NCBI GenBank assembly: GCA_036783095.1
Contig: DAIPXV010000001.1
Span: 4,043 to 68,042, forward strand
Direction: 5' to 3'
DNA length: 64,000 nucleotides
From: Candidatus Bipolaricaulota bacterium
Lineage (GTDB): Bacteria; Bipolaricaulota; Bipolaricaulia; RBG-16-55-9; DRXL01
Within the stretch, counting starts at the first letter, position 1; each line of letters opens with the position of its first letter. The notes below the pieces were generated by a model, which made no database searches, had not been told where the DNA came from, and saw only the letters and a list, made by a program, of their open reading frames with translations. Shown here in pieces: positions 225-64,000 of the stretch. The translations under genes and the position numbers were made by a program.

Positions 225-299
225 TGGTAGGCCGTGCAGGGATCGAACCTGCGACCCCCTGCTTAAAAGGCAGGTGCTCTACCACTGAGCTAACGGCCC
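225..299 (-). tRNA. tRNA-Lys (anticodon UUU), CCA encoded
   Basis: Reverse complement GGGCCGTTAGCTCAGTGGTAGAGCACCTGCCTTTTAAGCAGGGGGTCGCAGGTTCGATCCCTGCACGGCCTACCA folds as a cloverleaf: 7-bp acceptor stem, anticodon loop cuUUUaa, T-loop GGTTCGATCC. Confidence 0.85.
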
Positions 300-347
300 G
301 AAGAGATTTTACCCAGCGGACTTGGCTCTGTCAAACTGAACAATAGG

Positions 348-412
348 CCCTCACCCCGGCTTCGCCACCCCTCTCCCGTAGCTCACCTACGGGAGAGGGG
401 CATGGGGTGAGG
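348..412. repeat. Nested palindromic repeat element, copy A (ccctcacccc...cccctctcccgt..acgggagagggg..ggggtgagg)
   Basis: Outer inverted repeat CCCTCACCCC/GGGGTGAGG and inner inverted repeat CCCCTCTCCCGT/ACGGGAGAGGGG. A near-identical copy lies at 58958-59024. Confidence 0.8.
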
Positions 413-430
413 CCCCTTCCTGCTTCGAGT

Positions 431-478: not shown

Positions 479-3028
479 ATGAAGCGCTTTGTTCTGGTGG
501 GAGCGCTCTTAATAGCGTTTGCCCTGTGGCCATCGCTGAGCTCTGCTCAGCCGGACGTTCATGCTTTCACGCTCGAAAACGGCTTAACAGTCCTGCTCGT
601 CCCCAAGCCCGGCACCGGCATCACTGCTGTAGACATCTGGGTCAACGTAGGGAGCCTCAACGAAACGCGAGAGATCTCAGGCATCTCGCATTTTTTTGAG
701 CATATGCTCTTCAAGGGCACTGAAAAGCGCCCCGGCGGCATTGACAAAGAGGTCGAAGCCCTCGGCGGGCGCACCAACGCCGCTACATCTTATGACTTCA
801 CTCATTACTATATTATTTTGCCCAGCGAGCACGCCGAGCTCGCTCTCGATATCATCGCGGACATTACTCAGAACGCGAGCTTCCCTGAAGAGGAGATCGC
901 GCGCGAGAAGGAGGTCGTCCTGCGCGAGCAGCAGCAACGATCCGATGATCCCACCTCGTTTGCGTTCTTCACCATGCGCCAAGATTTCTACACTGTGCAC
1001 CCGTATAAGCTGCCCATCATCGGGTTTGCTGATAGCTTAGAGAAACTCACTCGCGAGGACTTCCTCAATTGGATGAAGACATACTATGTCCCCAACAATA
1101 TGACGCTTGTCGTCGCTGGGGATATCGAGAGAGAAAAGACGCTTCAGATCGTCAAAGAGAAGTTTGGGGCGATGCCGCGCAAGGAGATCCCCGCTCAGAC
1201 CTATCCCAAGGAGCCCGCTCGCGCCCAAAAGACTGTCAAAGAGATCCGACGCGACGTCAGCCAAGGATATCTCATCTTCGCCTGGCCCGGCCCATCCATC
1301 AAAGAACCCCAAGACGTCTACGCTATGGACGTCTTGATCACGGCGCTCTCTGAGGGCCGCAGCTCGCGATTCTACAAGAAACTCAAGAAAGAGCGCGGCT
1401 TAGTGACAACGATAGACGCGAGCTACTTCACCCAGAAGGAGCCAGGGATTTTCAATATTTATGCTGAATTCCCCTATGAGAACCGGGTGGCCGTCGAGCA
1501 AGCGATTCTGTCCGAGCTCAAAGAGATTCTCGATGGCAAGCTGAGTGCTGAAGAGATCGAGCGCGCCAAGAGGGTCCTGCTCGCTCGCGAAGCCCTGCAG
1601 GCTGAGACCGCCGCGGGGTTCGCCGGGACGCTAGGTTTCTATTCGGTTGTCGCTGGGGACTATCAGTTTGCGCTGACGTATCCCCAAAAGATTCGGGCGG
1701 TCACTGTCGAAGATGTCTTAGCCGTCGCACGAAAATATATCAATCTTGATCTGTACTATGAGCTGGTGCTCATCCCCGAGAGCGCGCCAGAGCAGCCAAC
1801 GGCTGAGGAACTGATCACGCTGCCCAACGGGCTAAAGCTCATCTTGCGAGAGGATCCTAAAGCGGAGACGGTCGCATTGCAGGCGTTTGTGGGGACGGGA
1901 GCGCGCGCGGAGCCCCCGGACTTAGCAGGGATCGCCGAGCTGACTTCGCGATTGCTCCTGCGCGGCACGACCACGCGCTCCGAAGAAGAGATCTTCACGG
2001 AGCTCGAAGATCTCGGGGCCCAGCTCAGCCAAGATATCTTAGCGGACATGGCCTACGTGACCCTCGTCACGCCCAAAGAGACGTGGGAGCGCGCCCTGCC
2101 CATCTATCTTGATGTGCTGCTCAATCCCGCGTTCGCTCCCGACGAAGTCGAGCGCGCCAAGACCGAATTTATTAGAGAGATTCGCGCCCAGGCCGATCAG
2201 AATTTTTCGATCATCTACGAGAACTTTCAAAAAGCCCTCTATGGGGATCACCCCTACGGGCACTTTCCCATCCCAGAGAGCGTCGCGCGCATCTCGCGCG
2301 AGGATATCGTGCAGTTCTACAAAAAATACTACGTGCCCAACAATATGACTCTCGTGGCGGTGGGGGCGTTTGATCGAGCGCTCGTGGAAGCGCTGCTGCG
2401 CGCCAAGCTCCAAGATCTGCCCAAGGGCGGGGAGGATCTGCCCCTTAAGCCACAACCAATCGCGCTCAAGCTCACAGAGCCCAAGCGTGTAGAAGCGACT
2501 AAGCGCTCGAACTTGACGTGGCTGATCGTGGGGTACGCGGCTCCGCCTGTAGCTAGTCCAGACTACCCGGCTATGAAAGTACTGAACGCGATCTTGGGCG
2601 GCGGGATGAGCTCGCGCTTGTTTAGTGAGCTGCGCGACAAGCGCGGGTTAGCGTACTCCACGGGCTCGTTCTACCCCTCGCGCGCTGAGGAGAGCCATCT
2701 CGTCACGTATATCATCGCGCTCCCGGACAACGCGGAGACAGCTCGCCAAGGGATTTTAGATATTATCAAAGAGATCCAAGAGCGCGGTGTTCCCCAAGAG
2801 GAGCTCGAACGCGCTCAAAGCTACGTCATTGGCAACTATCGCATCGAGCACGAGACGACGGAACGCCGTGCTTGGTATCTGGGCTGGTACGAGACGCTCG
2901 GCGTGGGCTACCAGATGGACGCGCGCTACCCTGAGCTCATTCAAACTGTGACCGTTGAAGATATTCAGCGCGTCGCTCAAAAATATCTGCAATACTTTGT
3001 GCTCTCGGTGTTGGGGCCAGGGTCTTAA
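479..3028 (+). CDS. Secreted tandem M16-family zinc metallopeptidase (pitrilysin/insulinase-like; two M16 units in one chain)
   Basis: HFFEHMLFKG (HxxEH zinc motif) with a downstream E-rich region in the N-terminal unit. N-terminal signal peptide. Second M16-like unit lacks HxxEH. RBS AAGGAGG 5 nt before the ATG at 479 (the track's alternative start is 458). Confidence 0.8.
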   Translation: MKRFVLVGALLIAFALWPSLSSAQPDVHAFTLENGLTVLLVPKPGTGITAVDIWVNVGSLNETREISGISHFFEHMLFKGTEKRPGGIDKEVEALGGRTNAATSYDFTHYYIILPSEHAELALDIIADITQNASFPEEEIAREKEVVLREQQQRSDDPTSFAFFTMRQDFYTVHPYKLPIIGFADSLEKLTREDFLNWMKTYYVPNNMTLVVAGDIEREKTLQIVKEKFGAMPRKEIPAQTYPKEPARAQKTVKEIRRDVSQGYLIFAWPGPSIKEPQDVYAMDVLITALSEGRSSRFYKKLKKERGLVTTIDASYFTQKEPGIFNIYAEFPYENRVAVEQAILSELKEILDGKLSAEEIERAKRVLLAREALQAETAAGFAGTLGFYSVVAGDYQFALTYPQKIRAVTVEDVLAVARKYINLDLYYELVLIPESAPEQPTAEELITLPNGLKLILREDPKAETVALQAFVGTGARAEPPDLAGIAELTSRLLLRGTTTRSEEEIFTELEDLGAQLSQDILADMAYVTLVTPKETWERALPIYLDVLLNPAFAPDEVERAKTEFIREIRAQADQNFSIIYENFQKALYGDHPYGHFPIPESVARISREDIVQFYKKYYVPNNMTLVAVGAFDRALVEALLRAKLQDLPKGGEDLPLKPQPIALKLTEPKRVEATKRSNLTWLIVGYAAPPVASPDYPAMKVLNAILGGGMSSRLFSELRDKRGLAYSTGSFYPSRAEESHLVTYIIALPDNAETARQGILDIIKEIQERGVPQEELERAQSYVIGNYRIEHETTERRAWYLGWYETLGVGYQMDARYPELIQTVTVEDIQRVAQKYLQYFVLSVLGPGS

Positions 3029-4982: not shown

Positions 4983-5109
4983 TCCAAAAAGTCAGCGTTC
5001 GGGGTAGCTCACGCGCTGAGCTGATAAGGAGGTGGTCGCCGAGCCTTGGTCAACACAGCACCTCTGTCCCAAAGCATCCCAAAACTCTCTCTTATAAGGA
5101 GGTAGCAGC

Positions 5110-6948
5110 ATGAAAGCAGTGTGGCGATGGGGAGCTTTAGCAGCAGTCTTGTTGCTGGTCTTCGGCGTAACGAGCGGGTTGGCCCAGATTAAGAATCCAG
5201 ACACGTATATTTACGGTTCCATCGGTGACTTGGAGACCCTCGACCCGGCATGGCACTATGACACTTCCTCCGCCACGGCGATCTTCAATATGTACGACTC
5301 GCTCATCTTCTACAAGCGCGAGAAGATTGACGAGTTCGAGCCGGCCCTCGCTGAGTCCTGGACTGTCTCTCCCGATGGCAAGACGTATACTTTCAAGATC
5401 CGCAAGGGTGTCAAGTTCCACGAGGGTGGCGACCTCTCTCCTGATGATGTTGCCTACAGCTTGCAGCGTGGCTTACTACAAGATCGCTCCGGCGGCCCTC
5501 AGTGGATGTTGCTTGACCCCATCATGGGCGTCAGCTCCATTGACGAGCTGGCCAAGTCTGTCGGTGATGTCAAGGCCTGCGAGATGGTCAAGGAGGCCAT
5601 CTCCGTCCAAGGGGATAGCGTTGTTATCAAGCTAAAGATCCCCTTCTCGCCCTTACTCCAGATCCTCGCCGGCAGCTGGGGCGCGGTACTGGACAAGGAA
5701 TGGATGATCGCCAATGGCGACTGGGACGGTAAGTGCGACACCTGGCGCAAGTGGTGGGATCCTGCTGCCGAGAAGTCCACGATCTTCAACAAGGCCAATG
5801 GCACTGGCCCCTACAAGCTGGAGAAGTGGACTCCTGGCGAAGAGATCCGCTACACCCGCTTTGATGGGCACTGGCGCGGCAAGGCTCCGTTGGCTAAGGT
5901 CGTTTACAAAGTGATCCCGGAGTGGGGCACGCGCTTGGCCGCCTTCCAAGCGGGCGACTTGGACAGCATGGACGTGCCGCGGGCGTTCGTGGCCCAGATG
6001 GACCCATTGGTGCAGCAGGGCAAGGCCGTGATGTACAAGGACCTGCCCACCAATACGGCTCAGGACGCGTTCTTTAACTTCAAGGTTGCGGCGGAGAGCC
6101 CGTTCATCCCGCTGCTGGGCCGCGATAGGAAGCCCGAGCTCTTTAGCGACATCCACATGCGCAAGGCGTTCAACTACTGCTTCGACACCGACACTTACAT
6201 TAAAGAGGCGTGGTTGGGCGAGGCCAAGAAGCGCCGCGGGCCGATCCCCTCGGGCTTGCTGGGCTACAACCCCGAGCAGCCAGTCTACGAGTTCAGCCTG
6301 GAGAAGTGCGAGGCTGAGCTGAAGCTCGCTTGGGGCGGAACGGCGGACAAGCCTGGCCCAGTGTGGGAGCAGGGCTTCCAGGTGACGCTCACGTATAACA
6401 CGGGCAACGCGCAGCGCAAGATCGCTGCAGAGTTGCTGGAGAAGAACCTCGAATCGTTCAACGCCAAGCGCGGCCGCGCGCCCTCGATCAACGTCAACGT
6501 GCTCGATATGCCCTGGCCCTCTTACTTGAAGGCCATGGATGCCGAGCAGTTGGCGGTCTGGTGGATCGGCTGGCTGGAGGACTACCATCATCCTCATGAC
6601 TGGGTCCAGCCGTACTTACACAGCCGCGGAGCGTTCGGTGGCTTCCAGCAGTTCGAGGTCATCAAGGATGTGGACTTCAAGCCCACCTACGCGACCTTCT
6701 TGCCGGCGAAGAAGTACCCCAATCTCCAAGAGCTTTTCGACGACCTGATCGAGAAGGCTCTGCTGGAGACAAACGTCAAGAACCAGGAGAAGATTTACTT
6801 CGACATCCAGAAGCTCGCTATGGACTGGGCAGTGGACATCTTCCAAGCGGAGCTTCTGGGGCGGCGCTACTTCCAGCCCTGGGTCAAGGGATGGTATCAC
6901 AACCCGGCGTATCCTGGGGACTGGTGGTTCGTGCTGTCCAAAGGGTGA
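5110..6948 (+). CDS. ABC transporter substrate-binding protein, family 5 (oligopeptide/dipeptide/nickel type)
   Basis: Signal peptide, size (612 aa) and overall SBP_bac_5-like sequence. Followed by two family-5 permease genes. Confidence 0.8.
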   Translation: MKAVWRWGALAAVLLLVFGVTSGLAQIKNPDTYIYGSIGDLETLDPAWHYDTSSATAIFNMYDSLIFYKREKIDEFEPALAESWTVSPDGKTYTFKIRKGVKFHEGGDLSPDDVAYSLQRGLLQDRSGGPQWMLLDPIMGVSSIDELAKSVGDVKACEMVKEAISVQGDSVVIKLKIPFSPLLQILAGSWGAVLDKEWMIANGDWDGKCDTWRKWWDPAAEKSTIFNKANGTGPYKLEKWTPGEEIRYTRFDGHWRGKAPLAKVVYKVIPEWGTRLAAFQAGDLDSMDVPRAFVAQMDPLVQQGKAVMYKDLPTNTAQDAFFNFKVAAESPFIPLLGRDRKPELFSDIHMRKAFNYCFDTDTYIKEAWLGEAKKRRGPIPSGLLGYNPEQPVYEFSLEKCEAELKLAWGGTADKPGPVWEQGFQVTLTYNTGNAQRKIAAELLEKNLESFNAKRGRAPSINVNVLDMPWPSYLKAMDAEQLAVWWIGWLEDYHHPHDWVQPYLHSRGAFGGFQQFEVIKDVDFKPTYATFLPAKKYPNLQELFDDLIEKALLETNVKNQEKIYFDIQKLAMDWAVDIFQAELLGRRYFQPWVKGWYHNPAYPGDWWFVLSKG

Positions 6949-7035: not shown

Positions 7036-8100
7036 ATGATTGCTTATATTGTGCGCAGACTGATGCTCCTGCCCGTGCTCGCCTTTGGAGTTACGCTCTT
7101 TGTCTTCAGTATGTATGCGATGCTTGGCCCCGTAGAGCGCGCGAGCCTCTACGTGCGAGACATCCCCAAGACAAAGGATGCCCTGGATCGCATCATCAAA
7201 AAATACTGCCTCGATTGCCCCATCTATGTGCAATACTGGAATTGGCTTGTCGGGGTACGCAATCCTGACACCGGCGAGCTTGAGGGCGGAGTGCTACGCG
7301 GCCAGTTAGGCTGGTCGAAGACCGCTCAGCGCCCTGTCCTGGATGCCTTGCTCTATTATCTGCCCGCAACCGCCGAGCTCGTCCTGTGGTGCGCTATTCC
7401 CGTGCTGCTGATCGGCATCTGGCTTGGGGTCAAAGCCGCTGTCTATCAGAACACGTTTATTGACCATGTGGCGCGCGTCTTTGCCATCGTCGGCTGGTCC
7501 TTCCCTACGTTTGTCTTCGGCTTGCTCGCATTGATGATCTTCTATGCGAAGCTCCCCTGGCTGCCTGCCGGGCGCCTCTCCGAATGGGCCATCCAAGAGA
7601 TCATCTCTGGGAATATCGTTCAGTATACACGAATGAATACGATCGATGGGTTGCTCAACGGCCGGCTCGATTTCTTCTGGGATGCTTTACGACACTTGAT
7701 TCTCCCAGTGATCACGCTCTCGTATCTGAGCTGGGCCTTAATTTTGAGGGTGATGCGCTCCAGCATGCTGGAGACGCTCCGGCAGGAGTACGTCACCGTC
7801 GCGCGCGCCAAGGGGCTCCCGGAGAAAGAAGTCATCAACAAGCACGCCAAGCGCAATGCCCTCATCCCCGTTGCAACCATCGGCGGTTTGACGATCATTG
7901 GCTTCCTTAACGGCGTTGTCATCACTGAGACGGTCTTTAACTACCGTGGCCTTGGATATTGGACGGCCGATGCTGCCCTGCATTTGGACATCATTACAGT
8001 GCTGGGGCTCTCGCTCTTCCACGGGGTTCTCTTAATTATTGGGAACTTGATCGTGGACTTAATCTATGTGGCAATTGACCCGCGGGTGAGGCTAGAATGA
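7036..8100 (+). CDS. ABC permease (DppB/OppB-like)
   Basis: Six-TM permease with the EAA-like region MRSSMLETLRQEYVTVARAKGL. Confidence 0.8.
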   Translation: MIAYIVRRLMLLPVLAFGVTLFVFSMYAMLGPVERASLYVRDIPKTKDALDRIIKKYCLDCPIYVQYWNWLVGVRNPDTGELEGGVLRGQLGWSKTAQRPVLDALLYYLPATAELVLWCAIPVLLIGIWLGVKAAVYQNTFIDHVARVFAIVGWSFPTFVFGLLALMIFYAKLPWLPAGRLSEWAIQEIISGNIVQYTRMNTIDGLLNGRLDFFWDALRHLILPVITLSYLSWALILRVMRSSMLETLRQEYVTVARAKGLPEKEVINKHAKRNALIPVATIGGLTIIGFLNGVVITETVFNYRGLGYWTADAALHLDIITVLGLSLFHGVLLIIGNLIVDLIYVAIDPRVRLE

Positions 8101-9910: not shown

Positions 9911-11434
9911 ATGTCCAAGCGCCCCTATGTGCTCATCGTCCTAGACGGCTGGGGAATGCGCCAGGAGACCCAATGGAACGCGATTGCATGCGCCAAGACC
10001 CCCAATTTTGACCGCTATTGGAAAAACTATCCCCACACGCTCGTGCGCACCGATGGGCGCGCCGTGGGGCTACCTGAGGGACAGTTTGGCAACTCCGAGG
10101 TCGGCCATCAGAACCTCGGCGCGGGGCGCGTCGTCGTGCAGACCTCGACCCGGATATCTGACGCTATTGCTGACGGAAGTTTTTTTGCGAATAGAGCGCT
10201 CTTGCGCGCCACGACGCGCGCGCAAAACAGCCGACTCCATCTCATAGGGCTTGTGAGCGACGGCGGCGTGCACAGTTTGCTAGAACATCTCTTTGCGCTA
10301 ATCGAGCTTGCGCGCCGCGAACACGTCTATAATCTCTATATTCACGCGTTTTTAGATGGCCGCGATACCCCGCCGACCTCTGGAGCGAGTTACGTCAAGC
10401 GCGTGCGCGAGCTTTGTGAAGACGTGGGCTTTGGTCAGATCGCCACGATCATGGGGCGCTACTGGGCCATGGATCGCGATAATCGTTGGGAGCGCACAGA
10501 GAGAGCCTATCGCGCTTTGCGGTTTGCTGAGGGTCTCAGAGATGATGGCCCTGCGGAAGCTGCCGTCGCGCGCGCCTACCAGCGCGGCGAAACCGATGAA
10601 TTTATCCAGCCCATCGTGCTTGACCCTGAAGGAGCTGTTCAGGACGGCGACGCTGTGATCTTCTTTAACTTTCGCCCCGATCGGGCGCGACAGCTCACGC
10701 GCGCGTTCACAGAAAAAGACTTTGTGCACTTCGATCGTGGGCCACGCCCACAGATCGAGTTCGTCACCCTCACTCAGTACGATCAACGCTTTACGGTCCC
10801 TGCGGCCTTCCCCAGCGAAGATTCTTTGTCCCACATCTTCGGCGAGGTCCTAAGCACTTCGGGACTGACGCAGTTCCGCATCGCGGAGACGGAAAAGTAC
10901 GCGCACGTCACGTACTTCTTCAACAACGGCCGCGAGATTCCCTTCCCCGGAGAAGAGAGAAAACTCATCCCCTCGCCCAAGGTCGCGACATACGATCTCA
11001 AGCCAGAGATGTCGGCCTACGAAGTCACCGACGAAGCCGTGAAGCAGATCACGAGTCGTCGCTACGACTTCGTTCTGATAAACTATGCGAATCCCGATAT
11101 GGTGGGGCACACGGGCGTCTTTGAAGCTGCGGTCAGAGCTGTAGAAGCTGTTGATGAGTGTCTGGGTCGGGTGGTGGAAGCGGCACTCTCAGTGAACGGA
11201 GAAGTTTTAGTCACGGCGGATCACGGCAATGCAGATATTATGAAGGACGAGCAAGGCCGACCGCACACGGCCCACACCCACAGCCCCGGCCCGCTCATCT
11301 ATATCGGGCCTAGGGCTATACAACTCTCTGGGGGCGGGGCACTCTGCGACATCGCGCCCACGCTCTTGGAGCTTATGGGGCTCAAACAGCCGAAAGAGAT
11401 GACGGGGCGGAGTTTAGTCCTATGGCAGAACTGA
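9911..11434 (+). CDS. gpmI: 2,3-bisphosphoglycerate-independent phosphoglycerate mutase
   Basis: VLIVLDGWG...GNSEVGHQNLGAGRVV...ADHGNAD are iPGM motifs. Confidence 0.85.
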   Translation: MSKRPYVLIVLDGWGMRQETQWNAIACAKTPNFDRYWKNYPHTLVRTDGRAVGLPEGQFGNSEVGHQNLGAGRVVVQTSTRISDAIADGSFFANRALLRATTRAQNSRLHLIGLVSDGGVHSLLEHLFALIELARREHVYNLYIHAFLDGRDTPPTSGASYVKRVRELCEDVGFGQIATIMGRYWAMDRDNRWERTERAYRALRFAEGLRDDGPAEAAVARAYQRGETDEFIQPIVLDPEGAVQDGDAVIFFNFRPDRARQLTRAFTEKDFVHFDRGPRPQIEFVTLTQYDQRFTVPAAFPSEDSLSHIFGEVLSTSGLTQFRIAETEKYAHVTYFFNNGREIPFPGEERKLIPSPKVATYDLKPEMSAYEVTDEAVKQITSRRYDFVLINYANPDMVGHTGVFEAAVRAVEAVDECLGRVVEAALSVNGEVLVTADHGNADIMKDEQGRPHTAHTHSPGPLIYIGPRAIQLSGGGALCDIAPTLLELMGLKQPKEMTGRSLVLWQN

Positions 11435-18712: not shown

Positions 18713-20710
18713 ATGTTTAAATACATTAAATTCATCGCCGTAGTAGCCTTGCTCACGCTCTTCATCGGGGCTGTGCTCTCGAGCCAGTCCAACTCGGTCG
18801 TGCAAGCCCAAGCTCAGAAGATCTACAAGCTCGCGATCTTCGAGGACCTAACGAGCTTGAATACGTTAGCCATTTTGGGCCCCAAGGCGACAGTGTGGAA
18901 CTTCTACGTCCGCCTGAACGGCTGGGGGCCCTCGCTCTTTGGGTTCTCGGACAAGTTCGATGACTACATCCCGGGGATTGCCGATGCCAGCACCGAGGAA
19001 GAAGCCAACAAGATGAAGACCATCGGCCCGGACAAGACCGCGACCATTAAGATCAAGAAGGGCATCAAGTGGTTCGACCCCAAGACGGGCAAGGAGATCG
19101 GCGAGCTGACCGCTGAAGACGTAGCGTTCAGCTTCAACGCGATCATGGGGAAGAACGTCAAGGGCGAGGATGCGTACAAGGGCATTACCCCTGTGAAGAT
19201 GGGCGGCAACTGGCCGGGCATTATTAACCCCGACTTCTTCGATCACGCCGAGGTCGTAGATAAATACACGGTGAAGTTCTATCTAAAGGCGCAGTGCAGC
19301 TACGACGGCTGGGATGAGGGCTTGCTCTTTGCGCCCATCTTCAGCAAGGCGTACTGGGAGCCCAAGTTCGAAGCTGCGGCCAAGGCTCAAGACCCCATCA
19401 AGGCTCTCTATGAGCACAAGGGCGACGACGAGCCCGTGGCGGGTGGCTGGCTCTTCCAGAAGTGGGAGCCCGGGGCCTTCGCTGAGTCTACAGCTAATAA
19501 GAATCACTATTTCTACGGAGTTAAGAGCGTCCGGCCCTACTCCGGTGGCTACACCGAAGAGAAGCCTGGCGTCTATAAGTACACCCACACCACCAAGGTC
19601 GGGTTTGCCTACGACGGCGATCAAGGCTCGGCTATTCTCGATAAAGATAAGCCCACAGTGAGATTAGAGCTGACCACCGGCCCGTTCGTGGATGCGACGC
19701 AGTGGCGCATCTACGGCGACCAAGCCACAGCCGTCGCCGCGCTCATCAAGGGTGATGTGCACTTCATGCTCAACCCCTTGGGCGTGCAAGCGGGCTTCCG
19801 CAAGCAGCTCAAGGAAGCCAAGGGCGTGGGCATCGCGGAGAACGCCGGCAACGGCTTGTACTATATGAGCTTTAACCTGCGCCGCGAGCCCTTCAACGTC
19901 AAGGAGTTCCGCCAAGCGGTTTCCATTATGATCGACCGCGAGTTCGTCACGCAGCAGCTCTTGGCAGGCTTGGCCATCCCCACGTACTCCATCGTGCCGC
20001 TGGCCAACACTGGCTGGTATAACCCCAACGTCAAGACCTACGGCAAGGGCCTCAAAGAAGCTGAGAAGGCCGATCTGGCGATCAAGCTCCTCAAGCAAGC
20101 TGGCTTCAGCTGGGACACTGAGCCCAAGGTTGATATCCCCAACAACAAGGTCACGCCGGGGCGCGGGCTCAAGTACAAGGGCAAGCCTGTCCAGCCCTTC
20201 GAGTTGCTCGCGCCGCACCAGGGCTATGACCCCTTGCGTGCCACGTTCGCCCTGCACATCGAGGAGCGCCTCAACAAGATCGGCATCCCTGTCAAGGTCA
20301 ATTTGACAGGGTTTAACACGATTGCCAGCCGCGTCTTCGATGAGCAGAAGTTCGACGCGTGGATCTTGGGATGGGGCCTGGGCGGCAAGTTCCCCAGCTA
20401 CCTCGTGAGCTTCTTCCACAGCGAGAACTCCGGCTTAGGTGGCCAGAACCCGCAAGGGTACAACAACCCGGAGTTCGACAAGATCGCCGATGAGTTCCGC
20501 GCGGCCTGCGAGCAGGCTAAGCTCAAGGAGCTGGCGTTCAAGATGCAGGAGATCCTCTCCGAAGAGCTGCCCTACGTGCCGCTCTTCAACGCCCCGCTCT
20601 TTGAGGCGTTCCGCGCCGATGCCTTCGTCGGTGACCATATGCCCTACGAGAAGGTCTTCGACGGCATCCAGGGCACGAACGGCTTGATGAGCTATGTCCA
20701 GCTCAAGTAA
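18713..20710 (+). CDS. ABC transporter substrate-binding protein, family 5
   Basis: Signal peptide and the size/sequence style of SBP_bac_5. RBS GAAGGAGG. Heads a complete B-C-D-F cluster. Confidence 0.8.
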   Translation: MFKYIKFIAVVALLTLFIGAVLSSQSNSVVQAQAQKIYKLAIFEDLTSLNTLAILGPKATVWNFYVRLNGWGPSLFGFSDKFDDYIPGIADASTEEEANKMKTIGPDKTATIKIKKGIKWFDPKTGKEIGELTAEDVAFSFNAIMGKNVKGEDAYKGITPVKMGGNWPGIINPDFFDHAEVVDKYTVKFYLKAQCSYDGWDEGLLFAPIFSKAYWEPKFEAAAKAQDPIKALYEHKGDDEPVAGGWLFQKWEPGAFAESTANKNHYFYGVKSVRPYSGGYTEEKPGVYKYTHTTKVGFAYDGDQGSAILDKDKPTVRLELTTGPFVDATQWRIYGDQATAVAALIKGDVHFMLNPLGVQAGFRKQLKEAKGVGIAENAGNGLYYMSFNLRREPFNVKEFRQAVSIMIDREFVTQQLLAGLAIPTYSIVPLANTGWYNPNVKTYGKGLKEAEKADLAIKLLKQAGFSWDTEPKVDIPNNKVTPGRGLKYKGKPVQPFELLAPHQGYDPLRATFALHIEERLNKIGIPVKVNLTGFNTIASRVFDEQKFDAWILGWGLGGKFPSYLVSFFHSENSGLGGQNPQGYNNPEFDKIADEFRAACEQAKLKELAFKMQEILSEELPYVPLFNAPLFEAFRADAFVGDHMPYEKVFDGIQGTNGLMSYVQLK

Positions 20711-20717
20711 ATAAGAG

Positions 20718-20765
20718 CCCCTCTGGGGGGTGAGGGCTTCTCACCCCCCAGAGTCCCCTCTTTCA
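20718..20765 (+). terminator. Hairpin attenuator/terminator after the SBP gene
   Basis: CTCTGGGGGGTGAG ggcttc CTCACCCCCCAGAG, then a weak T tract. Confidence 0.45.
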
Positions 20766-58172: not shown

Positions 58173-58262
58173 GCTGCGCGCTGGGTATCTTCGGGCCCAG
58201 TCGGGATCCTCGGCTGGGCCCACTCTTTGCCCACTCTCTTTCGTCGGGCTTGCGCTATGAGA

Positions 58263-60032
58263 TCACCGTCGCCCGAATTTTTTCTCTAACTCTTCGAGTG
58301 AGTACGCTAAGACTATCGGCCGCCCGTGCGGGCAACTGTAGGGGTTCTGGGTCTGCTTGAGTTGTCTGATAAGCTCCGTCATCTCTTCGGGGCGCAAGGG
58401 TTTGTTCTTGACGACGGCGGCTTCGCAAGCGACCCGCGCAGCCAGCGTCTTGGCAAGCTCTTCAAGCGTCGGTTCAGCCTCGTGCTCTAGCACCGCCAGC
58501 ACGCGCTCGATCGTCGCAACAAACTCGCTCTTGCTCCAATCGCTCGTCAGCACTTGAGGCCAATCTCGCAGCACGAACGTCCCGCCACCAAAGTGCTCGA
58601 TCCCGATCCCTAAGCGCTCATCAAAATCTCTAAGATGCGCAGCGAGAAGCTCAGCTTTGTCTGGAGGCATCTCGATCGTCACGGGGATCAGCAACCTCTG
58701 CCGAAGGACTTTTTGCTCTCTCAGCTGTGCGAGGAATCTTTCGTACAGAATGCGCTCATGAGCCACATGCTGGTCAATGATCTCCAGCCCAGACTCTGTC
58801 TGCACTAAGATATACGTCCCGTGGAGCTGGCCCAGCACGCGAAAGCTTGGCAGAGCTTCAGCGGGCGCAGGGGAGGGAATGGGCTTCTCGCGCAGCACTT
58901 CGATCTCTCTTCGGAGATCGAGCTGGGATGCTCGGGGCTGGATGACTTCTCCCTTAGCCCTCACCCCGCCCTGCGGGCACCCCTCTCCCGTGGGTACCCA
59001 CGGGAGAGGGGATGGGGGTGAGGGTCTCTCCCATCGCGGCATGGCATGAGCTGACGTTAACGCTTTGGTGATCGCTTGCTTCACCAACGCTTGGACTTTG
59101 ACGGGCTCGGCGAAGCGCACCTCGGCCTTCTGCGGATGGACGTTGACGTCTACAGCGCGCGGATCGATCTCGATGAATAGAAAGATATAGGGGTGCTGGT
59201 CGCCCTTGAGCGCGCTCTCATACGCTTGAGAGATCGCGTAATTTATTTGAGAATCTCTCACAAAGCGCCCGTTGACAAAGAGAAATTGTTCTGAGCGGTC
59301 GGGGCGCACCAGCTGCGCGGGGCTCACCAGGCCGCGCACGGTCAGCCCAGGGATCGTCGCGTGCACGTCAAGCAGAGCGCGGGCAAGCTCAGGCGTATAA
59401 AGCTGCGCTATGGTCTGGCGGAGATCGCTCGTGGGGGGCAAGTCGAGCACGAGTTTGCCGTCGTGTTCCAGACGAAAGTGCACCCTGGGGTATGCGAGCG
59501 CGAAGCGCTTCACCGTGCGCACGGTATGAAAGAATTCGGTCTTTAGGGATTTCAAGAACTTTCTTCGTGCGGGGACGTTGAAGAAGAGCTCGCGGACGTC
59601 TACAGTTGTCCCGCGTGCACGCCCCGTGGCTTTCACTGTTAAGACGCGCCCGCCCTCGATCTCCACGCGAACGCCCTCGGGAGAGTCGTCGCTTTTTGTA
59701 GTAATCACCGTCTTAGAGACCTCAACGATACTCGCAAGGGCTTCGCCGCGGAAGCCCAGGGTGCGAATTTGAAAGAGATCTTCTTCGGAAGAGATCTTGC
59801 TTGTCGTGTGGCGTTGGATAGCGAGCAAGAGATCTTCTTGGGTCATGCCCGACCCGTCGTCAGCCACACAGAGGCGACGCTCGCCGCCACCCTCGACGGC
59901 TATTTCGATCTTCGTGGCTTCCGCGTCGAGGGAATTTTCAATCAGCTCTTTGGCGACCGAGGCCGGGCGCTCGATGACCTCCCCAGCGGCGATCTTGTTG
60001 ACGATATGAGGATCTAAGACCTTGACTTTCAT
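58263..60032 (-). CDS. mutL: DNA mismatch repair protein MutL, with a repeat element embedded in-frame in the linker
   Basis: N-terminal GHKL ATPase motifs NKIAAGEVIERPASVAKELIENSLDA, DDGSGM. Intact 589-aa frame. Confidence 0.9.
   Translation of the reverse strand: MKVKVLDPHIVNKIAAGEVIERPASVAKELIENSLDAEATKIEIAVEGGGERRLCVADDGSGMTQEDLLLAIQRHTTSKISSEEDLFQIRTLGFRGEALASIVEVSKTVITTKSDDSPEGVRVEIEGGRVLTVKATGRARGTTVDVRELFFNVPARRKFLKSLKTEFFHTVRTVKRFALAYPRVHFRLEHDGKLVLDLPPTSDLRQTIAQLYTPELARALLDVHATIPGLTVRGLVSPAQLVRPDRSEQFLFVNGRFVRDSQINYAISQAYESALKGDQHPYIFLFIEIDPRAVDVNVHPQKAEVRFAEPVKVQALVKQAITKALTSAHAMPRWERPSPPSPLPWVPTGEGCPQGGVRAKGEVIQPRASQLDLRREIEVLREKPIPSPAPAEALPSFRVLGQLHGTYILVQTESGLEIIDQHVAHERILYERFLAQLREQKVLRQRLLIPVTIEMPPDKAELLAAHLRDFDERLGIGIEHFGGGTFVLRDWPQVLTSDWSKSEFVATIERVLAVLEHEAEPTLEELAKTLAARVACEAAVVKNKPLRPEEMTELIRQLKQTQNPYSCPHGRPIVLAYSLEELEKKFGRR
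58958..59024. repeat. Nested palindromic repeat element, copy B (inside mutL, in-frame)
   Basis: ccctcaccccgccctgcgggcacccctctcccgtgggtacccacgggagaggggatgggggtgaggg, ~85% identical to copy A at 348-412. Encodes ERPSPPSPLPWVPTGEGCPQGGV of the MutL linker. Confidence 0.8.
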
Positions 60033-60082
60033 GGGCGCTCCTTGTCACAATAACAAAAGAGAAAGGGGCTGACAAATCGCTC

Positions 60083-60601
60083 ATGAGATACAGTGTGATA
60101 CTCGGACTTTTGCTAGTGGGTGCAGAAGCTCTGGCCCAGGAGCGCGCGCCCAGTGTGGGGCTATCTCTCAGTTGGATGGAGCTTAGGAACTTTCAGCCGG
60201 CGCTGCCCACGTTTGTGCTCTCTCAGAAAGTTTTGCTCTTCTCGGTGCGCGGGGAGACACAGATCGAGTTTGGGGTGGGGCTGCGCTTGGCCGGGGGCTG
60301 GGGCTTTGCGTTTGAGGGCAGCTCTCTTGGGATCGCCCACTATGAGACAGCGCTCGCCTTGAGCTTCCCCTTCGGGCGGGCGAGCGCTTCTATTGAACTT
60401 GGCTCAGGGATCTTGCATCTTGTGCAAGGCGCGGAGCAAGCATGGCGCTGGACCGGCTGGGTCGGGGCTGGCGGGCGATTTGCGATCTTCCCACACATAT
60501 CAGTCTTCTTCGACGTGGTTCCCTTAGTGTTGCTCGACTTCAGTCAAAGGACTTTGCCGTGGGCGTGGAGCTATCGCGGCGGTGTGCTCTGGCGGTTCTA
60601 G
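60083..60601 (+). CDS. Putative small outer-membrane beta-barrel protein
   Basis: Signal peptide. G/A/F/W-rich alternating strands. C-terminal ...GGVLWRF (terminal aromatic). Confidence 0.45.
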   Translation: MRYSVILGLLLVGAEALAQERAPSVGLSLSWMELRNFQPALPTFVLSQKVLLFSVRGETQIEFGVGLRLAGGWGFAFEGSSLGIAHYETALALSFPFGRASASIELGSGILHLVQGAEQAWRWTGWVGAGGRFAIFPHISVFFDVVPLVLLDFSQRTLPWAWSYRGGVLWRF

Positions 60602-62436
60602 CTCGCTCGGCGCACGCGGATCGTCCCGCCTGATCTGTGGGCTTCGTAGATCCTCTCCGCTGGCTCACTCCCGCGGACTAATTTAATACTTCCCGTGCGC
60701 GAGACCGAGCCGATGAACACCGGCTCTCCGTCCACTAAGATCTCAATATTGCGCCCGCGGAGGCTCGGGTCTAAGTCCAAAATCACGTGTCGATCGCTCA
60801 CTTCGATATCGACGTCTTGATGGAGTGTCGTCTCCATCTCGTCGTATGAGCGCACGTCTAACCCGATCCCCAGCTCAGCTTCGAGCTCGCGGATGCGGCT
60901 GCCCCCACGCCCTAGAATGATGGGGATCTGATCTTCATCCACATAGATCGTTGCTTGGTTATCTGAACGGATCTCCACGGTGAACGGCCCACGGATCACG
61001 CGCCGCAGCTCGTATTCGAGGGCCTGGGTCGCCAACCGCCAGACCGGCTTCTCGCTGATGACCTCCTTCACCGGCATGACGACCACTTGCTCCCCGAAGC
61101 TGTAGATCTCATAGACTAATGCTTTAGACTCAAACTCGCGGATCTCGATGACCGGGCGGGCCAAGTCCGTGTCGCCCATGCCGCTGGGGACCTTGACCGT
61201 GAATTCGACTTCATAGATCTCCTTGACGTCGCCCGCTTCAATGAAGACGACCGTGTCCACCACTTGAGGGATCATCCCCAGATCGACGCGCCCAATCAGT
61301 CTCTGCACGGCATCGATGCCCCGCGTGGCGTGCACGACCCCGATCATCCCCACCCCTGCCAAGCGCATGTCCGCAAAGACTTTGAAGTCTTCATCCACGC
61401 GCATCTCGTCGAAGATCGTATAGTCGGGGCGCACTAAGAGCAGCACGTCCGCCGTCTTTTTCATTTCGCCGCCCAAAGCTGTATACTGCGTGATCTCATC
61501 GGAGAGCTCGAGATCTCTGGGCTTCTCCATAGTCTTGAGGATCCAGCCTGACTCTTGTAAGTACTCTGCGATCCCCTGGACGAATGTGGACTTCCCCGCA
61601 CCCGGTGCTCCGGAGACGAGCACGCCGCGGGAGCGCTCCCGCAGGCGCTCTTTGAGGAGATCTGCATAGCGATACTCATCGAGCTTCTTGCGCACGATGG
61701 GGCGGACGATCGTGATCTCGAGCGCGTCGCTGAAGGGCGGTCGCGCGATAGCGATCCGCAAATTCTTTAGTTGAATGACGGTGCTCCCACCCATGTCCAT
61801 CTCGATGAACCCTTCGGGATGGCCCTTGGCCACCTCGACGATCTCGCGCGCGATGCGCTCTAACTCTTTTTCGGTCATGGGCTCCTCGCGCAACGGTACG
61901 ACCTTCATGTGCCCAGGGGTACCGCGCTTGGCCTTGGGACGCGCCTTGGCGCGCAAGTGCACCGACATCGTTTGCTCATCGAAGAACTTCATAATACTGA
62001 GCTGGTCGAGTGCGCGAGCCCCAGCCGCTGCCCCCAGAAACTGCATGGGCAGTCCTTGGGCTTCACTGACGATCGCTTGGCTGCGACTGCTCGTAAGCAA
62101 AATCGCGTTCTCTTCCTGGGCCACGGCGCGGACCATCGCGTGGATTTCGCCGGTCTCCGCCAACCGCAACGGATCGAGGCGTGGCCGCTCCCCCTTGAAG
62201 ACGAGCTCGATCTTCCCTTCCCACGCCAACTGTTGCAGTTGTTTGAGCTCGTTGAGCCCCGCATACCCCGTCTCTTGGCCGCGCACCGCTTGCGCCTCCA
62301 AAAGTGCTAAGACGGCGTTGGGCACGATGAAGACCGCGTTGGGGAATTTGTTGTTGCGGATCCCCTCGGTGATCCGCCCGTCTACAATGACGCTCGTATC
62401 GAGCACGTAGCGCTCGGCCTTATTCTCGCTTGACAT
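60598..62436 (-). CDS. PIN-domain plus P-loop ATPase plus KH-domain protein (COG1855-like, PhoH/PilT-related)
   Basis: N-terminal YVLDTSVIVDGR (PIN), Walker A GAPGAGKST, C-terminal KH-like GxxG segment IILGRGGSRIRELE. Confidence 0.7.
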   Translation of the reverse strand: MSSENKAERYVLDTSVIVDGRITEGIRNNKFPNAVFIVPNAVLALLEAQAVRGQETGYAGLNELKQLQQLAWEGKIELVFKGERPRLDPLRLAETGEIHAMVRAVAQEENAILLTSSRSQAIVSEAQGLPMQFLGAAAGARALDQLSIMKFFDEQTMSVHLRAKARPKAKRGTPGHMKVVPLREEPMTEKELERIAREIVEVAKGHPEGFIEMDMGGSTVIQLKNLRIAIARPPFSDALEITIVRPIVRKKLDEYRYADLLKERLRERSRGVLVSGAPGAGKSTFVQGIAEYLQESGWILKTMEKPRDLELSDEITQYTALGGEMKKTADVLLLVRPDYTIFDEMRVDEDFKVFADMRLAGVGMIGVVHATRGIDAVQRLIGRVDLGMIPQVVDTVVFIEAGDVKEIYEVEFTVKVPSGMGDTDLARPVIEIREFESKALVYEIYSFGEQVVVMPVKEVISEKPVWRLATQALEYELRRVIRGPFTVEIRSDNQATIYVDEDQIPIILGRGGSRIRELEAELGIGLDVRSYDEMETTLHQDVDIEVSDRHVILDLDPSLRGRNIEILVDGEPVFIGSVSRTGSIKLVRGSEPAERIYEAHRSGGTIRVRRAS

Positions 62437-62875
62437 ATATCTCTCCTAGTAGAGCAGCGACTTGCTCCAAAAATTCTCTGTCTTTTTCGGTGAACGCGTA
62501 GAGCATATCGCTGTCAATATCAATCTCTCCGATGACTTGCGAATCTTTGAAGATGGGCACGACGATCTCCGAGTGTGTAGAGGGGAAGCACGCCAAATAT
62601 CTAGGATCGGCGTTGACGTCGCCGACGATGACGGTGCGCCTCTCTCTGGCAGCGAGGCCGCAAATGCCTTGGCCGATGGGGATGCGCACGTGCTGGGTCG
62701 CTTGGGGACCATCCCACGCCTTGAGCACCAATTCATCGTCCTCAAGCATATAGACGCCGACCCAATTATATCGGATGACGTTCTTTCGCAAGAACGAAAC
62801 AGTCCTTTGTAAAGCTTGCGCAAAATCCAATGCCGCGATCTCGCGACGGAGAGCACTCAGTAAGTCCATAGCCAC
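62420..62875 (-). CDS. GAF-domain protein
   Basis: NWVGVYMLEDDELVLKAWDGPQ...GQGICGLAARERRTVIVGDV. 17-nt overlap with the downstream PIN-ATPase gene. Confidence 0.65.
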   Translation of the reverse strand: MAMDLLSALRREIAALDFAQALQRTVSFLRKNVIRYNWVGVYMLEDDELVLKAWDGPQATQHVRIPIGQGICGLAARERRTVIVGDVNADPRYLACFPSTHSEIVVPIFKDSQVIGEIDIDSDMLYAFTEKDREFLEQVAALLGEIYVKRE

Positions 62876-62995
62876 TCAAGCATATCACCAAACCCCACAG
62901 AGATGCAAGCGATGGAACTCGCTTGACGTCCTGCACAAGGTGCAGTATCATTCCCCCGGTGTAAATTTAATTATAATTGGGAGGTGGCCTGCGCT

Positions 62996-64000
62996 ATGCC
63001 CACATATGCGAAGTTACCGGACACACTAGCGCTTGAATCCGAGATCTTGCGGTTTTGGGAGCAGGCCGCCATTGCCGACAAAGTCCTCAGCCGCAACGAA
63101 CAGAACAGAGCTCACAAGCGCTTCGTCTTTTACGAAGGGCCACCCACGGCCAACGATAAGCCTCACTTTGGGCATCTCATCCCGCGGGTCTATAAAGATC
63201 TCTTCCCAAGATATAAATTGATGCAGGGGTATCATGTCATCAAGAAGGGGGGATGGGATACCCACGGCCTCCCTGTGGAGCTGAAAGTCGAGAAGGAGCT
63301 TGGGCTCAACAGCAAGCGTGAGATCGAGGCCTTCGGGGTCGAAAACTTCGTCAAGAAATGCAAGGAGAACGTCTGGAAGTTTAAGGGCGAATGGGAGCAG
63401 TTCGACCCCAGGATGGCCTTCTGGTACGACCAGCGGAACGCGTATATCACGTATACGAACGACTATATCGAGTCCGTCTGGTGGGCTCTGAAGAAGATTT
63501 GGGAGAAGGGGTTGCTCTACAAAGGGCACAAGGTGCTGCCCTACTGCCCTCGCTGCGGCACCCCCTTGAGCTCTCACGAGGTCGCCCAAGGCTACGAGAC
63601 CGTGAAAGATCCATCTATCTTCTTCAAGCTTCGCTTGACGTATGGCGTGCCGCGGAGCGGCACGATGAAGGTCAAGCGAAGCTTGCCAGACGAAGCCTGG
63701 TTCCTCGTCTGGACGACGACGCCGTGGACGGTGCCCAGCAATGTTGCTCTCGCAGTCCATCCCGACTATAGGTACGCCCTCGTTGAGGTCGGCCATGATA
63801 TCTTCATTCTTGCCGAGAGGTTGGTCGAGCCCGTCCTGGGGGAGCATCACCCTCAGATTCTAGATACTCTCCGCGGGACCGAGCTTGTCGGCTGGCGCTA
63901 CGAGCCCGCGTATAGGCTGAGCAACGATCCGAACGCCTACCGTGTTGTTGCGGCGGAGTTCGTCTCCCTTGAGGAAGGCACCGGGATCGTGCATATCGCT
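62996..64000 (+). CDS. ileS: Isoleucyl-tRNA synthetase (type 2-like), 5' fragment continuing beyond the window
   Basis: Hand-translated: FVFYEGPPTANDKPHFGHL (HIGH region), GWDTHGLPVE, YCPRCGTPLS. RBS GGGAGGTGG 8 nt before the ATG. The open frame runs to the window end. Confidence 0.8.
   Translation, partial: MPTYAKLPDTLALESEILRFWEQAAIADKVLSRNEQNRAHKRFVFYEGPPTANDKPHFGHLIPRVYKDLFPRYKLMQGYHVIKKGGWDTHGLPVELKVEKELGLNSKREIEAFGVENFVKKCKENVWKFKGEWEQFDPRMAFWYDQRNAYITYTNDYIESVWWALKKIWEKGLLYKGHKVLPYCPRCGTPLSSHEVAQGYETVKDPSIFFKLRLTYGVPRSGTMKVKRSLPDEAWFLVWTTTPWTVPSNVALAVHPDYRYALVEVGHDIFILAERLVEPVLGEHHPQILDTLRGTELVGWRYEPAYRLSNDPNAYRVVAAEFVSLEEGTGIVHIA

Follow-up and report, generated by a model that had tools for sequence, protein, structure and literature searches.

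A BoxC-like nested-palindrome repeat of Candidatus Bipolaricaulota lies between genes and in frame within mutL and other genes

The repeats called BoxC, PIT or the G/C-rich intrastrand triplex motif (TM) are said to go back to earlier work by Bachellier and, in 2000, by Hoyne and Maher. We analyzed a 64,000-nucleotide stretch of contig DAIPXV010000001.1 from a Candidatus Bipolaricaulota bacterium (the window), which held two copies of a nested palindrome. Copy A (348-412) lay in the spacer between the genes for tRNA-Lys and an M16 peptidase, and copy B (58958-59024) lay inside the mismatch-repair gene mutL. Very probably, the element is a dispersed, non-autonomous, GC-rich nested-palindrome repeat of the BoxC/PIT/TM_ECO kind, and its mutL copy is a translated passenger with no dedicated function.

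Comparison with described palindromic repeats

Holder et al. 2015 (PMC4666352) gave the BoxC, PIT or "TM_ECO" pattern as 5'-CCCTCNCCC N3-6 GGGNGAGGG N3 GGGNGAGGG and counted 3610 occurrences in 262 proteobacterial genomes. E. coli MG1655 carried 23 copies, all intergenic, with no associated transposase near them and no promoter or terminator activity (PMC4666352). A TM_ECO single strand formed a triplex in vitro, and no stable triplex was obtained in duplex DNA or in vivo; TM_ECO-bearing loci were unusually variable between strains and were linked to local genomic instability in E. coli (PMC4666352).

Direct reading of the E. coli hrpB-mrcB spacer gave CCCTCTCCC tgt GGGAGAGGG cc GGGGTGAGGGC ...16 nt... 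CCCTCACCC taa CCCTCTCCC tcaa GGGAGAGGG, in which the words were identical to those of the window element; BoxC was not annotated at this spacer in the MG1655 RefSeq record. The pattern of a C-block CCCTCNCCC and a G-block GGGNGAGGG matched only the two copies in the window and nothing in shuffles. In GGGAGAGGGG-ATG-GGGGTGAGGG the second G-block followed 3 nt on, and in silico 10/10 antiparallel positions were allowed purine-motif triads, the triad types of the TM motif being G·G:C, A·A:T, and T·A:T. As in BoxC/TM_ECO, one strand carried the same words with their order unchanged (CCCTCTCCC, loop, GGGAGAGGG, 3 nt, GGGGTGAGGG), the repeat was multicopy, dispersed, and often palindromic, no transposase was found, and the carrier loci differed between close relatives.

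The element also differed from TM_ECO. The blocks were 10 nt here, and the inner stem was lengthened by GT..AC and 2-3 variable pairs. The published first-loop span is 3-6 nt, whereas 12-13 nt separated the 9-nt blocks here because the stem was extended (GTGGGT/ACCCAC), the true loop being 0-5 nt. In the window a single hairpin was nested in a complementary CCCTCACCCC arm with a small covarying hairpin, whereas E. coli had two facing TM units. TM_ECO was counted in proteobacteria, while the hosts here were Bipolaricaulota, Chloroflexota, and others. The E. coli copies were always intergenic, but copy B lay in mutL and about 39% of the sampled Bipolaricaulota copies (20/51) were in frame in genes. 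Within the known BoxC/PIT/TM repeat kind, the element forms a new structural variant, located in new phyla.

Three further systems were compared. Rickettsia palindromic elements (RPEs; Ogata et al. 2000) are summarized in PMC10969869 and PMC3184786 as palindromic repeats that occupy intergenic DNA and also lie in frame within many unrelated genes, essential ones often among them. The element resembled RPEs in having in-frame copies in many unrelated genes as well as copies between genes, with a short peptide compatible with the host fold. It differed in length (~67 nt against the ~100-150 bp given for RPEs in PMC10969869), in host phylum, in its in-place inverting interior, and in a core common to a cross-phylum motif. 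By analogy, the element may be said to work like an RPE; the likeness is one of description, with no known sequence relationship, and we do not claim that it is an RPE. The first-pass annotation of this DNA had drawn the same parallel, and it was borne out by the in-frame copies in Pfam-verified hosts.

REP (repetitive extragenic palindromic) sequences and their paired form, REPINs, are mobilized by a Y1/HUH enzyme, RAYT (REP-associated tyrosine transposase), and a RAYT gene is typically flanked by REP repeats. Like them, the element was made of short GC-rich hairpins, often paired into larger palindromes, showed no target-site duplication, and was nested with other hairpin repeats (here the second family, fam2, and the TM-type element). 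Unlike them, it had no conserved GTAG-type 5' tetranucleotide and was not limited to extragenic DNA. [quoted passage not shown] However, neither those 46 copies nor a clean filled/empty site showed a target-site duplication, and we know of no parent insertion sequence with matching ends.

Family structure, insertion, and in-place inversion

The positions of both copies were checked against the sequence. Copies A and B were identical at 57/69 aligned columns (83%). The 12-mer CCCCTCTCCCGT, with a chance expectation of 0.43 occurrences, was present 4 times in the window, in both arms of both copies. R1, a covariance model derived from 34 related copies, scored 93 and 83 bits for the two window copies (E = 8e-20 and 2e-17) and, with filters off, found no third real copy in the 64 kb. 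A weak match at 11267-11342 (E = 0.03) was rejected as a copy, since the motif was not in it. Both copies folded with an outer stem CCCTCACCCC / GGGGTGAGGG around a small hairpin and a 14-16 bp hairpin. The folding energies were −53 to −62 kcal/mol as RNA and −30 to −34 kcal/mol as DNA, with z about −7 to −8 in each case. The first-pass annotation had reported two nested-palindrome copies at these positions, about 85% identical, the first next to tRNA-Lys. Both copies and their nested stems were recovered and the likeness held, at the slightly lower figure measured here; the neighborhood also held, and since the tRNA gene lies on the minus strand, the placement was corrected slightly, to the divergent tRNA / M16 peptidase spacer, ~48 nt upstream of the tRNA 5' end.

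A further intergenic hairpin, CTCTGGGGGGTGAG-ggctt-CTCACCCCCCAGAG, was observed at 20718-20756, 8 nt past the stop codon of a 665-aa open reading frame (ORF; 18713..20710). It was made of the element's arm word (GGGGTGAG / CTCACCCC) and could represent either a solo arm related to the element or a hairpin resembling a terminator.

One genome per GTDB species was scanned for exact matches of CCCCTCTCCCGT-N4-14-ACGGGAGAGGGG, and this inner-hairpin pattern was found at no fewer than 115 loci (retrieved loci are given below by numbers with the prefix L). Among the matches listed were many contigs from at least 9 Bipolaricaulota/Acetothermia metagenome-assembled genomes (MAGs), together with Chloroflexota (Dehalococcoidia, Thermomicrobiales, Anaerolineae), Armatimonadota, Fraserbacteria, and scattered Proteobacteria, Actinomycetes, Planctomycetota, and others. 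The 10-12 nt words were almost perfectly conserved across phyla. In either orientation the Bipolaricaulota copies read (A)AGGCCCTCACCCC - small hairpin - CCCCTCTCCCGT - stem extension and loop - ACGGGAGAGGGG - NNN - GGGGTGAGGGCC(TT), while many Chloroflexota copies were half units with the hairpin and a single GGGGTGAGGGCC arm. With model R1, 57 distinct copies were detected, spread over 46 loci from Bipolaricaulota and Fraserbacteria.

The 34 Bipolaricaulota-type copies aligned end to end in one common architecture. In this alignment 97.9% of cells were paired, compared with 55-69% when the partners were slid. The second pair of the small hairpin covaried (GC 16, CG 16), as did the inner-stem extension at its first variable pair (AU 14, GC 9, CG 6). 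No described RNA family matched: the Rfam gathering-threshold scan of the window returned two tRNAs only, and the E-value scan of the element gave sub-threshold microRNA-hairpin noise. The pattern was present in 3 of 2.9 million viral contigs, so there was no sign of a phage vehicle. Copies A and B are thus members of a dispersed repeat family.

The tRNA-Lys / M16-peptidase spacers of five relatives were fetched via the peptidase orthologues and aligned with the window. Four relatives, L146 (95% protein identity), L147 (94%), L149, and L150 (both 87%), had an empty site in which ...AACTGAAAAA ran directly into TTTGTCCCAG.... At exactly that junction the window and L148 (92%) carried an 86-nt insert with clean junctions and no target-site duplication. 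Direct repeats of 2-8 nt were not enriched at any boundary offset in 46 copies, whose flank profile showed only W-GG before and CC-T-T after the element, a palindromic extension of the arms. The element was therefore acquired or removed as a discrete unit, and no target-site duplication accompanied the change. Gain and loss of copy A could not be distinguished because the four closest genomes were about equidistant (89-91% nucleotide identity among each other). The first-pass annotation had suggested that this could be a mobile miniature repeat, which agrees with the filled/empty site and with the loci found in related and unrelated genomes.

The interior of the element also inverted in place. 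At three orthologous sites the flanks were the same and the interior between the outer arms was reverse-complemented: in the tRNA-Lys spacer between the window and L148, which shared the same unique 17-nt tail, in purD between L041 and L090, and in mutL between the window/L116 and L119/L120. As the interior was of equal length either way and the frame used was stop-free both ways, an intragenic copy stays open after a flip (compare L120). The arm-to-arm length was 61-68 nt in intragenic and intergenic copies alike with no bias toward multiples of three, and frame preservation must therefore come from variable junctions.

In-frame copies in mutL and other genes

Pfam matches on the mutL product were HATPase_c_3 (25-118), DNA_mis_repair (208-325), and MutL_C (400-546), and its closest homologues came from Candidatus Bipolaricaulota/Acetothermia. 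Copy B was translated without a stop on the minus strand as ...WERPSPPSPLPWVPTGEGCPQGGVRAKGEV... and contributed 23 residues (...ERPSPPSPLPWVPTGEGCPQGGVRAKG...) to the linker between DNA_mis_repair and MutL_C, the element as a whole coding for about residues 335-359. In an AlphaFold2 model of MutL built with 45 homologues, residues 330-371 were predicted as coil with no secondary structure, at a pLDDT (predicted local distance difference test) score of 32-36. This placement in low-confidence coil between Pfam domains is consistent with a disordered linker. The first-pass annotation had described a stop-free read-through of about 23 linker residues, and ORF, Pfam, and AlphaFold2 agreed with it. 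It had also called for an alignment of MutL orthologues as a check on lineage specificity. The exact 23-aa segment was found only in orthologues P0001-P0005, all at least 95% identical, and the element was missing from the MutL orthologues L137 (P0015) and L138 (P0021) and from L125 (58% identity). An element confined to two sites, with a peptide common to the orthologues, had been named as the outcome that would speak for ancestral linker sequence; many copies and a restricted peptide were found instead.

A 90-aa antisense ORF (58777-59049, plus strand) ran through copy B (...LALTPPCGHPSPVGTHGRGDGGEG...). It owes its existence solely to the lack of stops on either strand of the palindrome, and antisense ORFs of this kind are a likely source of spurious gene calls.

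Orthologue DNA showed that the same mutL linker site was filled in most lineages of the clade, also by fam2, and in several lineages the element came directly after the codons for P-R-(W/L)-E. All four combinations of orientation and frame were represented among the mutL copies. With the small hairpin 5' in the mutL sense, the frame was ALTP...GEG in L119 (= L004) and PSP...GVRA in L120; with the small hairpin 3', it was ALTP in P0009 and P0041 (at the peptide level) and PSP...GVRA in the window and L116. The mutL genes of L118/L124 kept the outer arms, with the interior swapped for fam2 (containing CAGTCCAGACGAAGTCTGG). In L117/L121 only the left arm and small hairpin were left, and two fam2 units occupied the linker up to the RVLGQ motif. 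Variant TM-like units were present in L122, L139, and others.

Outside the linker, L117/L121 mutL was 92% identical in nucleotides to the window gene, as close as L116, which had the window's linker; their linkers were not alignable with that of the window (~50% identity). Both the L117/L121 MutL (ORF 5001-6767) and the window MutL were exactly 589 aa despite unrelated linkers, which hints at a constraint on linker length. The stems of the mutL copies were perfect although their flanks differed by ~20%, so these copies were homogenized (gene conversion), re-inserted, or selected. Every full-length MutL homologue retrieved was intact and in frame.

One of these loci, L004 (CAYYOG010000002.1), was labelled "uncultured Thermotogae bacterium". 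The label looks wrong because the locus matched window positions 58258-63630 at 80% nucleotide identity over 5.4 kb and carried a Bipolaricaulota-type mutL with the element.

Among the matches listed, 20/51 sampled Bipolaricaulota copies (~39%) lay inside long ORFs that read through them, the 51 being the 57 copies less the loci fetched through mutL. Pfam named 19/20 of the host ORFs, often with the element within the domain envelope; the remaining host, in L049, had no Pfam match and was counted for its resemblance to the PD40-repeat protein of L113. The element thus occupies many genes in frame. The hosts were PurD (GARS_C), triosephosphate isomerase (TIM, tpiA), tRNA-guanine transglycosylase (TGT, tgt), arginase/agmatinase, LarC (Ni_insertion), an amidohydrolase, RecG, HypF (two copies), SecA (a partial copy), xanthine dehydrogenase, a glutamate-synthase-like (GltS-like) protein, a BTAD/AAA/TPR regulator, an S8 protease, a PD40-repeat protein (two copies), and MutL. 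Comparison with solved structures showed it as a clean insertion, of 17 aa in TIM and of 19 aa in PurD. Other phyla had in-frame copies in CarB, two ABC ATPases, a BTAD regulator, and a CoA-transferase. Compared with the 0/23 intragenic copies in E. coli (count from PMC4666352), the fraction here differed with a Fisher p of 2e-4, calculated with 20/52. Such occupancy has been described for RPEs and for a few other repeats (PMC10969869, PMC3184786). A literature search found no report of an in-frame lifestyle for BoxC/TM elements or in Bipolaricaulota.

The element was stop-free in 4/6 frames and encoded a peptide rich in Pro/Ser and then in Gly/Glu/Arg. In most intragenic copies the left arm was read as (E/K)ALTP, and the right arm was read as GEG or GVRA because its third frame has a TGA. 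In the intragenic copies L004, L027, L028, L039, L041, L047, L049, L090, L091, L101, and L019 the left arm was mostly (E/K/R/Q)-A-L-T-P, and this frame preference fits an extended arm of (A/G)AG followed by GCC CTC ACC CC. At the PurD junction the host residues (GL-D-R-I-S-P in the solved homologue) were similar to the arm translation, a likeness that hints at microhomology at insertion.

Two BTAD-family regulators, L043:1892-1947 (Actinomycetes MAG) and L080:3037-3110 (Bipolaricaulota MAG), carried the element at an equivalent place, directly ahead of the BTAD domain or where it begins, in L043 after the winged-helix DNA-binding domain; the common placement reflects either one tolerant site present in both or transfer of the gene. 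In L014:5366-7999 (Dehalococcoidia MAG) a single open frame ran over two CoA-transferase family III domains joined via two TM-type elements, and this frame may be a read-through fusion of neighboring genes made by the repeats.

The fam2 repeat was unrelated to the element. It took the form CAGGCTTCGCCTG hairpin - long GC hairpin - CAGTCCAGACGAAGTCTGG, was dispersed in Bipolaricaulota, adjoined tRNA and signal recognition particle RNA genes in L101 and L108, and had no Rfam match. In mutL linkers it lay nested in or beside the TM-type element and was translated as ...SPDEVW.... A fam2 copy was also in frame in the window's isoleucyl-tRNA synthetase (IleRS) gene, whose ORF ran off the window end. 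It had 29-nt arms followed by CCAGACGAAGCCTGG and encoded ...FFKLRLTYGVPRSGTMKVKRSLPDEAWFLVWTTTPW..., which gives the protein ~8 aa more than Thermus IleRS (1ile) has at this variable position. Sequence related to this copy was present in L089, L094, L116, and the L117/L121 mutL linkers.

Table 1. Coordinates of copies A and B, their neighboring genes, and fam2 copies (window positions unless a locus number is given).
Feature	Position	Strand	Detail
Copy A insertion unit	344..429		86 nt: TAGG + palindrome 348-412 + 17-nt tail CCCCTTCCTGCTTCGAG; from the six-genome spacer alignment
Copy A left outer arm	348..357	+	CCCTCACCCC
Copy A small hairpin	358..366	+	GGC-TTC-GCC; from the fold
Copy A inner hairpin	368..400	+	CCCCTCTCCCGTAG-ctcac-CTACGGGAGAGGGG
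Copy A right outer arm	404..412	+	GGGGTGAGG; also potential third strand of a BoxC/TM-type motif
tRNA-Lys(UUU)	225..299	-	Neighbor of copy A
M16 (insulinase-family) peptidase gene	479..3028	+	Downstream of copy A; anchor for fetching orthologous spacers
mutL ORF	58263..60032	-	589 aa; endonuclease type (DQHVAHE and CPHGRP motifs in the sequence)
Copy B, whole nested palindrome in mutL	58958..59024		67 nt, GC-rich
Copy B first arm	58958-58967	+
Copy B small hairpin	58968-58978	+	GCCC-TGC-GGGC
Copy B inner hairpin	58980-59011	+	Followed by ATG
Copy B second arm	59015-59024	+
fam2 copy in the IleRS gene	63625-63700	+	Arms 63625-63653 and 63657-63685
fam2 copy	L117:6040-6195
fam2 copy	L118:6020-6125
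fam2 copy	L089:~6000-6075
fam2 copy	L101:~7480-7555
fam2 copy	L108:~2900-2980
fam2 copy	L117:~1340-1425

Origin of the copies, alternatives, and meaning

In the explanation that we propose, the core is a CCCTCTCCC / GGGAGAGGG hairpin followed by GGGGTGAGGG, extended here by the complementary CCCTCACCCC arm and the small variable hairpin. Copies arise or vanish as ~70-90 nt units without target-site duplication, and their interiors can flip between the outer arms. As four of the six frames are free of stops, copies landing in frame in tolerant protein segments would survive. The MutL inter-domain linker would be one such segment, with the copy adding ~23 presumably disordered residues, and we infer that the mutL copy is most likely a harmless or neutral passenger in a fast-changing linker.

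Movement and inversion most likely reflect a single-strand or hairpin process, for instance template switching or an HUH-type enzyme acting in trans, because target-site duplications were absent, the architecture is one of hairpins, and fam2 was nested in a TM hairpin. A DDE-type MITE mechanism is less likely. Template switching at quasi-palindromes would also account for compensatory changes and flips without selection on RNA structure.

Several observations weigh against the passenger explanation. The intragenic fraction came from a pattern-selected sample of several MAGs, and the source genome was sampled over 64 kb, with 2 copies. No clean empty site for the mutL insertion was alignable, the L137/L138 linkers being too divergent to define junctions. 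A tblastn search with E. coli RayT, a distant query and hence a weak test, gave no match at E <= 1 in the window and fetched loci (1.05 Mb). Finally, the conservation of the stem words implies a maintaining force, and some copies may be other than purely neutral.

The last of these points leads to the alternative of a selected function, either as a cis-acting RNA/DNA element (an mRNA stabilizer, a translational pause, a protein-binding or triplex site) or as a useful flexible-spacer peptide. The compensatory base-pair changes in two helices, the nearly perfect stem words from E. coli to Bipolaricaulota, and the mutL elements that stayed intact while the surrounding linker diverged all argue for it, and the replaced linker in L117/L121 with its unchanged total of 589 aa hints at length selection. 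However, covariation in a palindrome also arises from template-switch correction, for which selection is unnecessary. Relative to host transcription the copies faced either way, they lay in coding as well as non-coding DNA, and their interiors flipped between close relatives, all of which is hard to reconcile with a strand-specific RNA role. No Rfam family matched, and the E. coli copies had neither promoter or terminator activity nor a stable triplex in vivo (PMC4666352). We therefore regard a selected function as unlikely.

It is less likely still, and in our view improbable, that the mutL copy forms a contingency or instability locus, at which a hairpin, cruciform, or triplex prompts deletions, frameshifts, or rearrangements that switch mismatch repair and give mutator subpopulations. 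The first-pass annotation had raised a hypermutation or recombination hotspot, or a slippage switch, in mutL, and the support for this proved circumstantial. TM/BoxC sites were tied to local instability in E. coli (PMC4666352), the mutL linker was wholly different between genomes ~92% identical in the rest of the gene, and inversions, nested fam2 insertions, and partial deletions occurred at the same site in different lineages. Against this, none of the full-length MutL homologues retrieved showed a frameshift or truncation that could be ascribed to the element, and tandem or homopolymeric tracts such as underlie reversible slippage were absent. The same element in purD, tpiA, secA, tgt, and other genes means that nothing is specific to mismatch repair, and the linker is simply one of the most insertion-tolerant coding segments.

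That the segment is ancestral low-complexity linker, its likeness to the intergenic copy being coincidental or an assembly artefact, is hardly credible: Pro/Gly-rich linkers are common and similar-flavored peptides stood at this position in many orthologues, but the copies were 83% identical in nucleotides over 67 nt and had the same 10-16 nt stems, the covariance-model E-values were 1e-17 to 1e-20 with the same architecture at more than 50 other loci, the exact peptide was confined to orthologues at least 95% identical while L137 and L138 were without the element, and the mutL copy recurred in independent NCBI, ENA, and JGI assemblies.

With the copies thus read as a dispersed repeat and the mutL copy as its translated passenger, a wider proposal can be put forward tentatively. 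The BoxC/TM-type palindromes of Bipolaricaulota, and sporadically of Chloroflexota and others, may form an active, invertible, target-site-duplication-free repeat, beyond a proteobacterial intergenic curiosity; we hold this as a possibility rather than as an expectation. If it is true, the near-perfect stems in diverged hosts would imply that the copies are multiplied, flipped, and homogenized, either by some undiscovered machinery acting in trans or in the course of repair or replication.

The finding joins two lines of work so far kept apart, one on the BoxC/PIT/triplex-motif repeats, which have posed questions of origin, mobility, and function since the 1990s, and the other on RPE-style in-frame palindromes in essential genes. 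Bipolaricaulota offer a data-rich natural system, with filled and empty sites, in-place inversions, nested insertions, and many host proteins. How the elements move, why their stems stay intact, and which protein sites tolerate 20-residue insertions become approachable by comparative genomics. The elements also inflate and diversify linkers and loops in MAG proteomes, create spurious antisense ORFs, and can mislead annotation and alignment.

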